Positions 30,794 to 33,973 of a stretch of 64,000 nt of DNA are shown piece after piece. Location of the stretch: positions 3,936,001 to 4,000,000 of the forward strand of contig OZ242311.1 of assembly GCA_965207885.1 (NCBI GenBank), in the 5' to 3' direction. This stretch comes from Candidatus Latescibacterota bacterium. GTDB taxonomy: Bacteria; Latescibacterota; UBA2968. The notes beneath the pieces were generated by a model. It did no database searches. It saw only the letters and a program-made list of their open reading frames with translations, and was not told the DNA's origin. A program made the translations under genes and the position numbers. How positions within the stretch are numbered: position 1 is the stretch's first letter; each line of letters starts with the position of its first letter.

Positions 30794-30895
30794 AGAAGTA
30801 AGAAGTGAAAAGTGAAAAGTGAGAAGTCCACCCAATATCTCCCCAGGACGGATGCTTCTTCACCTTCACACTTCTACCTTCACACTTCACACTTC
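30794..30895. repeat. Inverted arrays of degenerate 7-bp repeats
   Basis: AAGTAAG AAGTGAA AAGTGAA AAGTGAG on the left; CTTCAC CTTCACA CTTCTAC CTTCACA CTTCACA on the right, overlapping the RNAP stop codon. Confidence 0.7.
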
Positions 30896-33800
30896 AACCG
30901 GTAACCCTACAAATAACCGACTATACTCATCCGTCAACGGATCGCGCTCGCCCTTTTGCGCTGCGCGGGCAAATACCACACCCGGCTTTTCCGACCTGCG
31001 CGCCCGCGCCAAAACGCCATACCCACCGGGCGCACTTTGCGTTTCCAGATCGCTCTGAATCGCCAGCATCTCCGCCAGCGCATTGGCCAACCCCCAGCGC
31101 GCACCAATCGCCCGCGCAAAAAGCTCCTCTGGCGTCAGCCCCTCCCTAAAACCGTGCTTCAGGGGCGTAAACCCACCCTGATCATTCCGCGTCACGCCCT
31201 GGGGAGCCACATAAAGTCTAACCTGCTGCCAATTGGCACGCGCACCACATTCCACCAGAAGCGCGGGAATCCCGAGATCATCGTCGTCATATCCGCGAAG
31301 CTGTGCCAACACAGCCGACACCTCATCGGGATAATCGCGCCAGACATCTGGGTCATCGCCCTCTGGCGGATCGGGCCAATCGAGCGACGAACCGATAAAC
31401 GCACTCATCGACGCCCCTGTCTTACGCGCGGCATCAAACCCTCTATCCCACAATCGCGCTGCCAGATCCAATGCAGCCTTCGCGCCATCGCGCGCCATTG
31501 CATCCGCCATCCAGTCCATCACCTGATACTTATCGACAAATAATCCCTTTCGCTCAACCTCATCGCCGACAATCTCCGCAATCTCCTGCAACCCCTCGTC
31601 CGTCATACTCATATACGCCAGGCCAAACAGCGCGTCGTGCATCGGGTGTACCTTCTCGCGTGCAATCAGACCCAGATCTCGATTCAGATGCGCCTCAGCC
31701 GACAGATGCGCTTCAGCCGACCGCTGTCCCTCTTCAGTCACCGGCACAAAAATCGCCACCTGATCGCCATCAAAATCCATATTCATCATCTTGCAAATCG
31801 CCACACACACGCGCACAGCATCGCCTTCCACGCGCACCGGACGACACGCCACAAAAGCCATTGGCGAAAACGCGGGATTGCGAAGCACCACAGTCCATAA
31901 CTCAGCCATAGCCGCATCCAGAGCTTTCTCTGCTTTTCTCGACCGCCTATCCACTTCTTCAACTCCCACCTCTCTCGCTGCAAACGGCCCAAACAACGTC
32001 CACGCCATTTCTTCGGGCACACCGACCTGATCGTATCGCAATTCCGGAGCAGGCACAGCCACCGAACGCCCGCTGAACAACGCGCGCGCCTGAAATTGCA
32101 AACGCGACAACTCGCAAAATGCGCGAACCCGCTCAGACAGCGTCTCAACCGCGCGATCCACCAATATATCTGGCGCGCCATTGGCAATCATCTCCTCCAA
32201 GCGGTCATTAGCCTCTCGCAATTCTCGGGGCACATCTCTCCCACTCACATGAGTCAACGAATGCCCCGGTAGCCACGGATGCGGAATCGAACGCGCAAGC
32301 GCGACATCCCCATCGCGTTTCAACGAAAACTCGGTGCCGCGTTCATCCAGTTCAACAGCCACCCCACCCTTCGACAAATGCCCAATTAGCTCATCAAACT
32401 GAGGGGACGGTGCATTAGGAGTAACAGGTCCCGCAACGACGCGGTCAACCAGAGTATCGGCATCATCTCGATCCACTGCGCACGTATTGAATAAATCGTC
32501 AATCACCCCAAAAGCACCTGCTTCTCGCAACGCCAAAAACTCTGTCTCACCCAACCCTTGATCGCGTTGACCCGGCTTTACACCCATGTGAATTTTATCT
32601 GCTGCCAGATGCAACGTGCGCCCCCAATATACCCACCCTACAGTGGTGCGGCGCGGCAGCGTCTCCCCATTCACCGTCAGCGTCTCCATACCATCTTCAG
32701 CCAGCCCATTAGCTCTCAAACGAGCGCGTATCTCATCGTCCTTTGGCGCATTGAGCGCGGGAATAATAACCGGCTCTCCCTCGACCTTTGCAATGCGCCC
32801 GGCCACAGATTCGCGCAACTGTCCAATATTCAACCGCGACGGCAAACCACACACACTCACAATAAGCTCCACAGGCGTGCCATCCGACAGTTTGGGCATC
32901 TGTTCATCTCGCACAATGCGCGACACCACCCCCTTAAAACCGTGTCGATTGCTCAGTTTATCGCCCGGCGCAACGCGATTGGGCAGCATCATTCGGTTCG
33001 CAGCCGATTCGCTGATCACAACTGCATCTTCGTGTGTATCACCATTCCACGCCATAAAGGCGGTCAGCAAATTGTACCCCGTCCAAAAATGCGGATCGCT
33101 CGGTTCACACCCCGTTTGCACCAGCGCGGGTTCCAACTCCAGTATTTTGCCGTCATATTGCGCGTGATACGCGTGCCACACACCCTGCTCATCGCGCTGC
33201 ATATCGGGGCTTGGCGCACCAATCCACTGCCGCATCATATTCACACCCATCAAAACGCGATTGGTGTCATTGTGTTCCAAAAACGGAACCACCGAAGCAC
33301 CTATGCCCAGCCGTTTTTCAGGCGCATCGTCTTCAATAACCAGCTTGCCATCGCGAATAGTCGCTCCCTGAGCCACCTCTAAAATCCGCGCGAGATTCGG
33401 TCCCTCGGGCGTACAATAAGGACACACGCGCCCATCGTGCGACGGATGATAGCAATTTTCTACCCCCTCATCAGCCTCACCGATAATTGGGATCAACGTC
33501 ACCCGCCGCAAATGAACGTACATATCCTGCAAATTGGTCGCCTGCAAATACTGCGATGTCGGTTCCTCCGTAAAAAATGCGTGAATCCAATCTCCCAACG
33601 GCATCCAGGTTTCAACGGCATCTCCCAGCATCTCTGGCATATTTTCCAACCGCTCGGCAATATAATCGCGCAATTGCTCTCCCACACACCGAATCTCAGC
33701 GCGCGCCAAATCCACATCAGTCGGCGCGGGAACCACCGTTCGAAAAAAGCCATCTACCTTAAACCGCCCCCAATCATCGGGCTGAGGAATATTGTTGTAC

Positions 33801-33973
33801 ACAATCTCTTGCCCCCCCTGAATCGCGAGATGCAATTCACAGGTGTATTCACCCTTCGACACCACCCGATATCCCGCCAGCGACACCCGATCTGACAATA
33901 ATTCGGGCAATCCCTTTTGCACAAACATATCCCACGAAATTTTATGCCACGGTGCCTTTACTGAAAGACTCAT
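30887..33973 (-). CDS. Miniaturised single-chain RNA polymerase beta-beta' fusion (non-housekeeping paralog)
   Basis: Colinear RpoB motifs ([107 protein letters not shown]) followed by RpoC motifs ([35 protein letters not shown]). AGGAGG RBS. Confidence 0.9.

Follow-up and report, generated by a model that had tools for sequence, protein, structure and literature searches.

A miniature single-chain beta-beta' RNA polymerase gene linked to an ECF-type sigma factor gene in Latescibacterota

The polymerase gene and its product

A 64,000-nucleotide stretch of a Candidatus Latescibacterota genome (GenBank assembly GCA_965207885.1, contig OZ242311.1, positions 3,936,001 to 4,000,000), here called the window, carries on its minus strand a gene for a miniature single-chain beta-beta' RNA polymerase (30887..33973). 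Upstream of it on the same strand lie the genes for an MsbA-like ATP-binding cassette (ABC) exporter and for an extracytoplasmic function (ECF)-type sigma factor, the latter preceded by a promoter-like motif. The polymerase had been picked out in an earlier note made from the DNA letters alone, and the computational follow-up is described here. The sequence data are best explained by a catalytically competent, drastically reduced single-chain enzyme of the bacterial two-barrel type. Comparison of loci shows the sigma and polymerase genes to be one inherited and, judging from their layout, co-expressed unit behind an ECF-type promoter motif.

In the open reading frame (ORF) listing, its frame opens at a TTG (30887..33976, minus strand, 1029 aa). 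An ATG at 33973, one codon inside this frame, sits six bases past an AGGAGG, so the polymerase is taken to be 1028 aa long from that ATG, with its stop codon at 30887-30889. Residue numbers throughout count from the TTG at 33976. The reading frame is unbroken and the gene is intact in the stretch studied. This bears out the uninterrupted ORF of ~1028 aa given in the earlier note, whose coordinates are reproduced exactly by the likely ATG start; only the minus strand had been left unstated. The genome is a single 6.23-Mb contig in which the small polymerase gene is present once; some 280 kb from this gene stand the canonical rpoB and rpoC, next to each other and encoding 1269 and 1368 aa. The proposal of a second polymerase-like enzyme thus holds. 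As that note had also remarked, there are no ribosomal-protein or phage genes nearby: a Pfam scan of 24 neighbouring ORFs of the window found none.

The protein reads as RpoB blocks followed by RpoC blocks in native order, as first described. Pfam domains appear in the order Rpb2_3 (residues 142-200), Rpb2_6 (PF00562; residues 335-464, expectation value (E) 3.7e-40) and Rpb1_2 (PF00623; residues 698-755, E 2.2e-15). In a phmmer search against PDB sequences, residues 113-465 match the bacterial beta chain 8i23_C (E 2.2e-43) and residues 630-792 match the bacterial beta' chain 5uh5_D (E 7.3e-27). Both halves score better with bacterial than with archaeal models: 169.1 bits for bacterial rpoB versus 135.1 and 114.7 for archaeal B, and 113.5 bits for bacterial rpoC_TIGR versus 46.4 and 43.0 for archaeal A'. 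Because of these scores, and because the family consensus past DFDGD (DQ.AV.LP) agrees with the genome's own beta', the polymerase is assigned to the bacterial type, and the suggested derivation from bacterial RpoB/RpoC is supported.

Catalytic residues were followed in an alignment (A1) of 67 full-length sequences, consisting of the query, two sequences from a word-indexed search and 64 of the 150 listed in an HMMER search; it excludes the canonical long forms and most entries under ~940 aa. In the beta' barrel, the magnesium-binding motif NMDFDGD (31763..31783, minus strand; residues 732-738) keeps D734 in 65/67, D736 in 65/67 and D738 in 64/67 sequences. In the beta barrel, the active-site motif GDK..R.G.KG (32930..32965, minus strand; residues 338-349) has G338, D339, R344 and G346 in all 67, K340 in 62 and K348 in 63. 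The ED motif is conserved as well (E316 in 59/67, D317 in 62/67), and so are the PSR arginine R381 (66/67), H456 (62/67) and the GAR arginine R913 (62/67). Every active-site residue named at the outset is therefore present, with NMDFDGD at the very nucleotides given for it. Both barrels of a two-double-psi-beta-barrel core are found, the beta' barrel with its DFDGD aspartates and the beta barrel with its basic residues and ED motif. The highest column conservation in the family alignment falls in the catalytic blocks (2.4-2.95 bits). The family belongs to the two-barrel RNA polymerases, a known kind of enzyme.

What was kept and what was cut was read from the family hidden Markov model (HMM) aligned to the genome's own beta and beta'. 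The beta-derived half (32297..33973, minus strand; residues about 1-560) retains beta 405-540, 610-665, 744-780 and 1035-1268, the last running through the C-terminus. The second half retains beta' 267-534, from the clamp helices through the DFDGD barrel (family HMM 560-790, E 3.1e-45), and beta' 560-788, through the bridge-helix region (family HMM 773-967, bridge-helix stretch included). The parts shared with the genome's own subunits are thus the ED motif, GDK..R..K, DFDGD, a switch-2-like FSGRSV, the bridge-helix region and the clamp helices. In the family HMM, no counterpart was found for beta 163-404 and 781-1034, which we take to be the lobe and flap, or for beta' 1-266 and 789-1368, which presumably comprise the zinc finger, zipper, lid, trigger loop, jaw and omega site. 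A 25-residue stretch just past the clamp helices, presumably the rudder position, likewise has no counterpart in this HMM comparison with the genome's own beta'.

Two of the retained elements and two of the new ones deserve separate description. A helical hairpin aligned to the beta' clamp helices (32117..32227, minus strand; residues 584-620) is modelled by AlphaFold2 as helices H584-598 and H603-620 and is moderately conserved at 1.87 bits per column. The clamp helices are the principal dock for sigma region 2, so this element of the sigma receptor is present by both the HMM alignment and the predicted hairpin. The bridge helix is recognised from the HMM alignment to the genome's own beta' and a long predicted helix, H949-980, with conservation of only 1.60 bits. 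The chain ends about 50-60 aa beyond the bridge-helix region in a family-specific C-terminal tail (30890..31036, minus strand; residues 981-1029) that, at 2.56 bits per column, is among the best-conserved segments. This tail occupies the place where canonical beta' runs on for ~580 aa, trigger loop included. It had been suspected to be a trigger-loop helix; its local alignment to the genome's own beta' 789-1368 scores 27, versus a mean of 29.6 for shuffled sequences (standard deviation 4.1), and the idea was dropped. A family-specific N-terminal domain is also present.

AlphaFold2 run with A1 predicts one confident body, with a predicted local distance difference test score (pLDDT) of 94.7 and a predicted template-modelling (TM) score (pTM) of 0.93. 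In Foldseek searches of the PDB with this model, bacterial and plastid beta chains rank first (E about 1e-24; TM-score 0.31-0.43 normalised to the query), and viral models gave weaker matches only (best E 2.5e-17).

The family is large. The word-indexed search returned 804 matches; among the best 120 of these, 112 are 969-1067 aa long and carry PF00562 plus PF00623, eight are partial entries of 593-817 aa, and all named entries are called 'hypothetical protein'. An exhaustive HMMER search covering 1.84 billion cluster representatives shows a score gap between the full-length family (470-1368 bits) and the first canonical long forms (1948-2522 aa; ~220-229 bits). At 50% identity, the full-length members make up at least 64 clusters. 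The small polymerase family is without a model in NCBIfam. At E 1e-80 or better, the polymerase was found in 65/168 Latescibacterota genomes, including 20/20 of its own genus. By record title, other carriers belong to Armatimonadota/Chthonomonadales, Planctomycetota, Chloroflexota (Caldilineaceae) and a Spirochaetales metagenome-assembled genome. The ratio of nonsynonymous to synonymous substitution rates (dN/dS) is 0.12-0.20 in 12/13 comparisons with relatives, the thirteenth being saturated. The earlier note had named lack of similar-length homologs, neutral evolution, a variable DFDGD and failure of the two barrels to assemble in a model as signs that would tell against it. None of these appeared: homologs of similar length abound, evolution is not neutral, the aspartates are not variable, and the chain is modelled as a single confident fold whose best structural matches are beta chains.

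Some family members depart from the common architecture. The polymerase of locus L033 is split into two ORFs, and one in-frame stop each interrupts the polymerase matches of two of the 168 Latescibacterota genomes. In five genomes of the same genus (G079, G085, G090, G084 and G091), the match breaks at about residues 459-485 inside a single frame of 1055-1130 aa, which suggests an insertion at the junction of the beta and beta' halves. The ESM Atlas holds two clusters that fit the family (73 and 135 members; 1026 and 1006 aa) and several other single-chain clusters of 1164-1787 aa, mostly with PF00562 plus PF00623 and mostly 'hypothetical', which may represent a broader unexplored range of reduced fused polymerases.

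Contigs from RNA libraries (X1, X2, X3 and X5; three studies; coral or sponge metagenome) cover relatives of the polymerase gene. Most of the aligned contigs are 90-95% alike; record 1 of X1 spans 30020-33654 and record 13 of X2 spans 32631-35051. They give a weak hint that the relatives are expressed, since DNA carry-over is possible and no 5' ends are readable.

An origin from mobile elements was considered and rejected. None of the 68 matching plasmid records in PLSDB and none of the 33 matching phage records in INPHARED covers 80% or more of the query, and IMG/VR yielded no family member, its best matches being larger canonical-like beta/beta' genes at 22-31% identity. PADLOC defence-system models gave no match for the polymerase, and PHROGs gave generic beta and beta' families only. 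The genes that flank the module vary by lineage among the 33 loci compared. The sigma-polymerase module looks like a small chromosomal cassette with a patchy distribution.

The link to an ECF-type sigma gene

The sigma factor gene (35870..36343, minus strand) matches Sigma70_r2, r4 and r4_2 in Pfam and TIGR02937 at 88.6 bits (cut-off 42.9). Its likely start is a TTG at 36316, downstream of an AGGAGG. It has the make-up of an ECF factor, with regions 2 and 4 only, and the sigma ORFs of intact relatives are ~190-235 aa long. In this genome, an in-frame deletion of 147 bp with its junction at ~36268/36269 has removed 49 aa of region 2, as seen by comparison with L004 and L013. The deletion is flanked by CAAG microhomology, and the missing stretch is present in the 18 relatives compared. 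The RNA-library contigs of relatives have loose ends at 36257-36268 that diverge from the window, and those at 36257 spell part of the deleted stretch. The earlier note, while right about the second polymerase-like enzyme, had overlooked this dedicated sigma gene and its conserved link to the polymerase, which are the main mechanistic clue.

The ORFs of the window and of 32 genome loci of other species were clustered for a comparison of neighbours. The only neighbour common across phyla is an ECF-type sigma of ~200 aa, encoded just upstream on the same strand. By tblastn it is found in this position in 31/31 genome loci with upstream sequence, under five phylum-level labels (the locus L035 is a fragment of 1.1 kb). 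Sigma and polymerase genes adjoin or overlap each other in 19 of the 31 loci, separated by an intervening gene, as in the window, in 10, and set apart by a larger gap in two. They overlap by 4 nt in L021 and L025 and are 1 nt apart in L028. Upstream sequence is available for 13 of 14 further metagenome loci, and the sigma gene is adjacent in 10 of the 13. Two of the metagenome loci are of unusual form. The ORF of L138 (2631-3815, plus strand) opens in the second half of the beta part, is N-terminally shorter and follows an HTH_3 gene; that of L127 (4088-6970, plus strand) encodes a 960-aa family member without a sigma gene within 4 kb on either side.

The two proteins also occur together at the level of genomes. 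With a threshold of E 1e-40 or better, the sigma subfamily is present in 63/168 Latescibacterota genomes; dozens of other ECF-like candidates in these genomes fall under it. Both genes are present in 62 genomes and neither in 102; three have the polymerase only (G143, G146 and G149, two of them with partial matches) and one has the sigma only (G156, at a contig edge). G071, the sole genome in which the polymerase occurs twice, also has the sigma gene in duplicate, each copy adjoining a polymerase. These modules, in a genome of 8.4 Mb, lie at C1:1427405-1431192 and C1:3367752-3371734; the polymerases are 49% and 40% identical to that of the window, and one of the matches contains a TAA. An apparent natural fusion of sigma and polymerase in G106 (a 1248-aa open frame) was rejected, because at the same place, as represented by L017, a TGA separates the two genes.

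Across the 33 loci, no anti-sigma gene is conserved beside the sigma gene, the polymerase gene filling that position, and no membrane sensor is conserved either. Within the partner sigma family, the linker between sigma2 and sigma4 (RRREQPLE...PGWMID..LGPD) is conserved across phyla. In solved ECF holoenzymes this linker threads the active-centre cleft, and such linkers are generally unconserved (PMC6648896, in part).

Directly upstream of the sigma gene is a promoter-like motif, GAACCTTCGGGCATTGGGCGGTGTC (36339..36363, minus strand), with an ECF-type -35 element GAAC and -10 element CGGTGTC; it is the single match in the window. The pattern GAAC, 15-17 bases, (C)GGTGTC stands directly upstream of sigma in 29/31 genome loci across phyla, and in 27 of these it is exact. 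Its position before its own sigma gene suggests autoregulation. Copies are also found at the polymerase gene itself: in L022, where 787 nt separate sigma from polymerase, another exact copy precedes the polymerase gene by 160 nt, and in L129, which has no sigma nearby, an exact copy stands directly before the polymerase gene. These copies indicate that the motif serves the polymerase gene itself.

The -35 element abuts a terminator-like hairpin followed by U8 (36364..36396, minus strand; -21 kcal/mol, z -4.26), and 0/200 shuffles fold as well. A second terminator-like hairpin, of 14 pairs plus a T-run (30760..30792, minus strand), lies ~95 nt past the polymerase stop codon and marks the end of the sigma-ABC-polymerase unit. 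Since such hairpins flank it at both ends, the unit appears to be insulated on both sides. From co-inheritance, adjacency, the shared motif and the flanking hairpins together, the polymerase gene emerges as the conserved, and so far only visible, target of the sigma factor.

Possible functions of the pair

The leading interpretation is that the sigma factor and the small polymerase act together as a minimal RNA polymerase holoenzyme, a reading that on the genomic evidence stands about evenly balanced. The sigma factor would then also dock on the retained beta' clamp helices of the small polymerase, and the holoenzyme would start RNA chains at GAAC-N15-CGGTGTC without alpha, omega, the beta flap, the beta lobe, the beta' N-terminal clamp elements or a trigger loop. 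Catalysis would be carried out by the DFDGD magnesium site, the lysines and arginine of the beta barrel and the bridge helix, with the conserved C-terminal tail of 49 aa perhaps standing in for some of what the absent trigger loop does. Binding of sigma to the small polymerase is suggested because the clamp helices, the main sigma dock, outlasted the loss of most other peripheral parts. A holoenzyme is further suggested because the gene spacing is very tight (as in L021, L025 and L028), because a private sigma subfamily is kept for one gene across phyla, and because the sigma2/sigma4 linker is conserved, unlike the linkers of ECF factors generally (PMC6648896, in part). A complex prediction with polymerase residues 225-1029 (A1) and the intact sigma of L004 (A2), made with no control runs, gave scores of 0.09 and 0.03 against a mark of 0.32 and is counted neither for nor against the pair.

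Several observations weigh against a holoenzyme. The beta flap with its flap-tip helix, the usual dock of sigma region 4, has no counterpart in the family HMM, where positions 295-304 span the gap. A trigger loop was not found, the alignment to the genome's own beta' ending at 788/1368. A DFDGD aspartate is missing from two to three of the 67 sequences in A1, though these few may be misaligned because MAFFT spread the alignment over 1827 columns. The sigma encoded in the window lacks 49 aa of region 2 while the polymerase gene stays intact, and three metagenome loci (L127, which has ArgJ upstream, L129 and L138) have no adjacent sigma. The -35/-10 spacing of the motif is ordinary for ECF promoters, and would fit a sigma that works on the host core enzyme. 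Nor did a wider regulon come to light. The genome has six matches to the motif versus 7-8 in shuffled sequences, and the only copy in such a context is the one upstream of sigma; in the 25 relatives scanned, counts likewise stay at chance level once the copy before sigma is set aside, and in 15 genomes of the same genus they equal those of a reversed-pattern control. At this stringency, the scans leave room for a regulon with a weaker or different motif. A polymerase whose sole promoter is its own has no evident output.

The alternative that fares best, though rather unlikely, is that the sigma serves the host core RNA polymerase only, as an ordinary ECF regulator with the polymerase gene as its single target, and that the small polymerase works independently of sigma. 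Its templates might then be single-stranded DNA or RNA, with a role as an RNA synthase in priming or repair, or it might be RNA-dependent in the way of the QDE-1-type two-barrel enzymes. The promoter spacing, which is typical for a canonical ECF holoenzyme, agrees with such a division of labour, as do the missing dock for sigma region 4, the promoter copies directly before the polymerase gene in L022 and L129, and the intact polymerase of the window, whose sigma has lost part of region 2. A single chain without a trigger loop can moreover be an efficient polymerase, as YonO shows (PMC5467207, in part). What this alternative leaves unexplained is why the clamp helices were retained when most other peripheral elements are gone, why the two genes overlap by 4 nt or stand 1 nt apart in the pattern of proteins made in fixed proportion, and why a specialised sigma subfamily is maintained for one target in several phyla. 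An autoregulated sigma without an anti-sigma would, in addition, have no brake.

In a further reading, the small polymerase is mainly a sigma sink, which would mimic the sigma dock of the core and sequester the operon's sigma like an anti-sigma, with catalysis secondary or lost. The polymerase gene does stand in the anti-sigma position with no other conserved regulator, the clamp helices are kept, and the motif scans of the genome and its relatives found no output regulon. However, a chain of 1028 aa with active-site conservation of 62-67/67 in both barrels plus the bridge-helix region exceeds the needs of a decoy, and the catalytic blocks are the best conserved parts (2.4-2.95 bits) versus the moderately conserved clamp helices (1.87 bits). 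A sink is for these reasons improbable, and a similarly small chance is left for roles beyond all those considered here. That the gene is a functionless decaying duplicate of rpoBC or an assembly artefact is very improbable and already contradicted by the conservation data: the deletion in the partner sigma, the split polymerase of L033 and the in-frame stops in two genomes might be read as decay, but nothing breaks the frame in this genome or in the large majority of relatives, dN/dS lies at 0.12-0.20, at least 64 clusters (50% identity) from several phyla share the architecture, the predicted fold is of high confidence, and contigs of relatives occur in RNA libraries.

A stronger form of the holoenzyme reading can be stated, doubtful as it is at present. 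The pair would be the smallest known sigma-dependent cellular RNA polymerase, a two-protein holoenzyme of ~135 kDa that recognises and melts GAAC-N15-CGGTGTC without flap, trigger loop, alpha or omega. As its promoter drives the pair's own genes, the module would form an autocatalytic transcription circuit independent of the host polymerase. A circuit of this kind could persist or switch on when natural products or phage factors block the host polymerase; just as well, the module could be a selfish transcription unit that moves horizontally.

The general view is that all cellular transcription depends on a five-subunit core of ~400 kDa. To our knowledge, the single-chain relatives described so far are enzymes of prophages, phages or yeast plasmids, barely alignable to the cellular core. 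Here, selection maintains a compact enzyme close to bacterial beta/beta', together with its own sigma, on chromosomes from several phyla of bacteria. If the pair is an active holoenzyme, bacterial cells would have a second machine for transcription, and the pair would offer a natural minimal system for learning which parts are needed in promoter recognition, melting, catalysis and fidelity, as well as a candidate small orthogonal transcription tool; a polymerase that works with its sigma would be of strong interest to the transcription field. If it is not, the module would represent a new kind of sigma-controlled polymerase or of sigma regulator.

The family resembles several known systems in part. 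With the bacterial core (beta, beta', alpha2, omega) and an ECF sigma it shares both double-psi barrels, the catalytic motifs, the clamp helices and the link to a sigma70-family (ECF) factor, but it is one chain of 1028 aa versus 2637 aa for beta plus beta' in this genome, and it has its own N-terminal domain and C-terminal tail. The full-length fusions of Helicobacter and Wolbachia (NCBIfam NF007172 and NF011417) also join beta to beta' in the same order, but at ~2840-2890 aa they contain all domains and are nearly threefold larger; the small polymerase scores 168 versus a cut-off of 5372 bits with NF007172 and 176.3 versus 4632 bits with NF011417, far from membership.

YonO of the Bacillus prophage SPbeta (PMC5467207, in part) is likewise a single chain of ~100 kDa with two barrels and no detectable trigger loop, and shares no more than a few catalytic residues with cellular enzymes. 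In contrast, matches of the small polymerase family to bacterial beta and beta' reach E 1e-43 and 1e-27, and the family is chromosomal and tied to a sigma, whereas YonO is prophage-borne with no known sigma link. No Bacillus phage record was found at E 1e-5 among the 33 phage-collection matches in tblastn, a comparison in which YonO was not aligned directly. Orf6 of the yeast killer plasmid pGKL2 (982 aa; PMC2919709, in part) is a fusion of the two largest subunits, Rpb2::Rpb1, with about half of the sequence deleted and of similar size, but it is derived from eukaryotes, plasmid-encoded and cytoplasmic, and has no sigma factor. The same idea has been reached independently in the two cases.

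The gene layout recalls ECF sigma/anti-sigma operons, in which a two-domain sigma (regions 2 and 4) has a conserved promoter-like motif upstream of its own gene and is tightly coupled with the next gene; here, however, the coupled gene is a polymerase homolog rather than an anti-sigma, and a conserved membrane sensor is likewise absent. No ECF group with a polymerase neighbour is named in the main text of the ECF reclassification (PMC7826278, in part), though its supplementary genetic-context tables might list one. In the literature searched, which did not extend to supplements and subscription journals, no published description of the small polymerase family or of a sigma-linked small polymerase was found, in agreement with the earlier note, where the enzyme was not recognised as described.

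Neighbouring genes

The gene between sigma and polymerase in the window encodes the MsbA-like ABC exporter (33989..35851, minus strand; ABC_membrane plus ABC_tran). An intervening gene is found in 10/31 loci (L004-L009, L011, L014, L016 and L019). In eight of these it clusters with the exporter of the window; in L008 and L011 it is an unclustered ORF of 381 or 396 aa. It is absent from the close relatives L010, L012, L013, L018 and L020. This distribution marks the exporter as an accessory gene that part of the genus carries within the operon.

Upstream of the module lie a 315-aa ORF without a family match (36421-37368, minus strand) and a gene for a 345-aa protein (37358-38395, minus strand) with a DksA/TraR zinc finger, as found in factors that bind RNA polymerase. 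Both are cut off from the module by the terminator-like hairpin and are conserved in the close clade only. Downstream of the module (28257-30661, minus strand), genes for BlaI-type repressors are paired with genes for BlaR1-like M56 peptidases bearing TonB C-terminal domains; such pairs recur in L004, L008 and L020, with several copies in relatives.

Further away, beside uvrB (43607-45643), lies a type II restriction-modification pair (41865-43614, minus strand) made up of genes for an MjaI-type restriction endonuclease and an N6/N4 DNA methylase. The product of a large ORF that is open at its 3' end (60215-64000, plus strand) is a C25 (gingipain-type) peptidase that has a propeptide and a CARDB domain. 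The GC skew is -0.1 to -0.3 from base 1 to ~54 kb and +0.04 to +0.06 thereafter, and its change of sign (about 52000-56000) coincides with the switch in gene strand.

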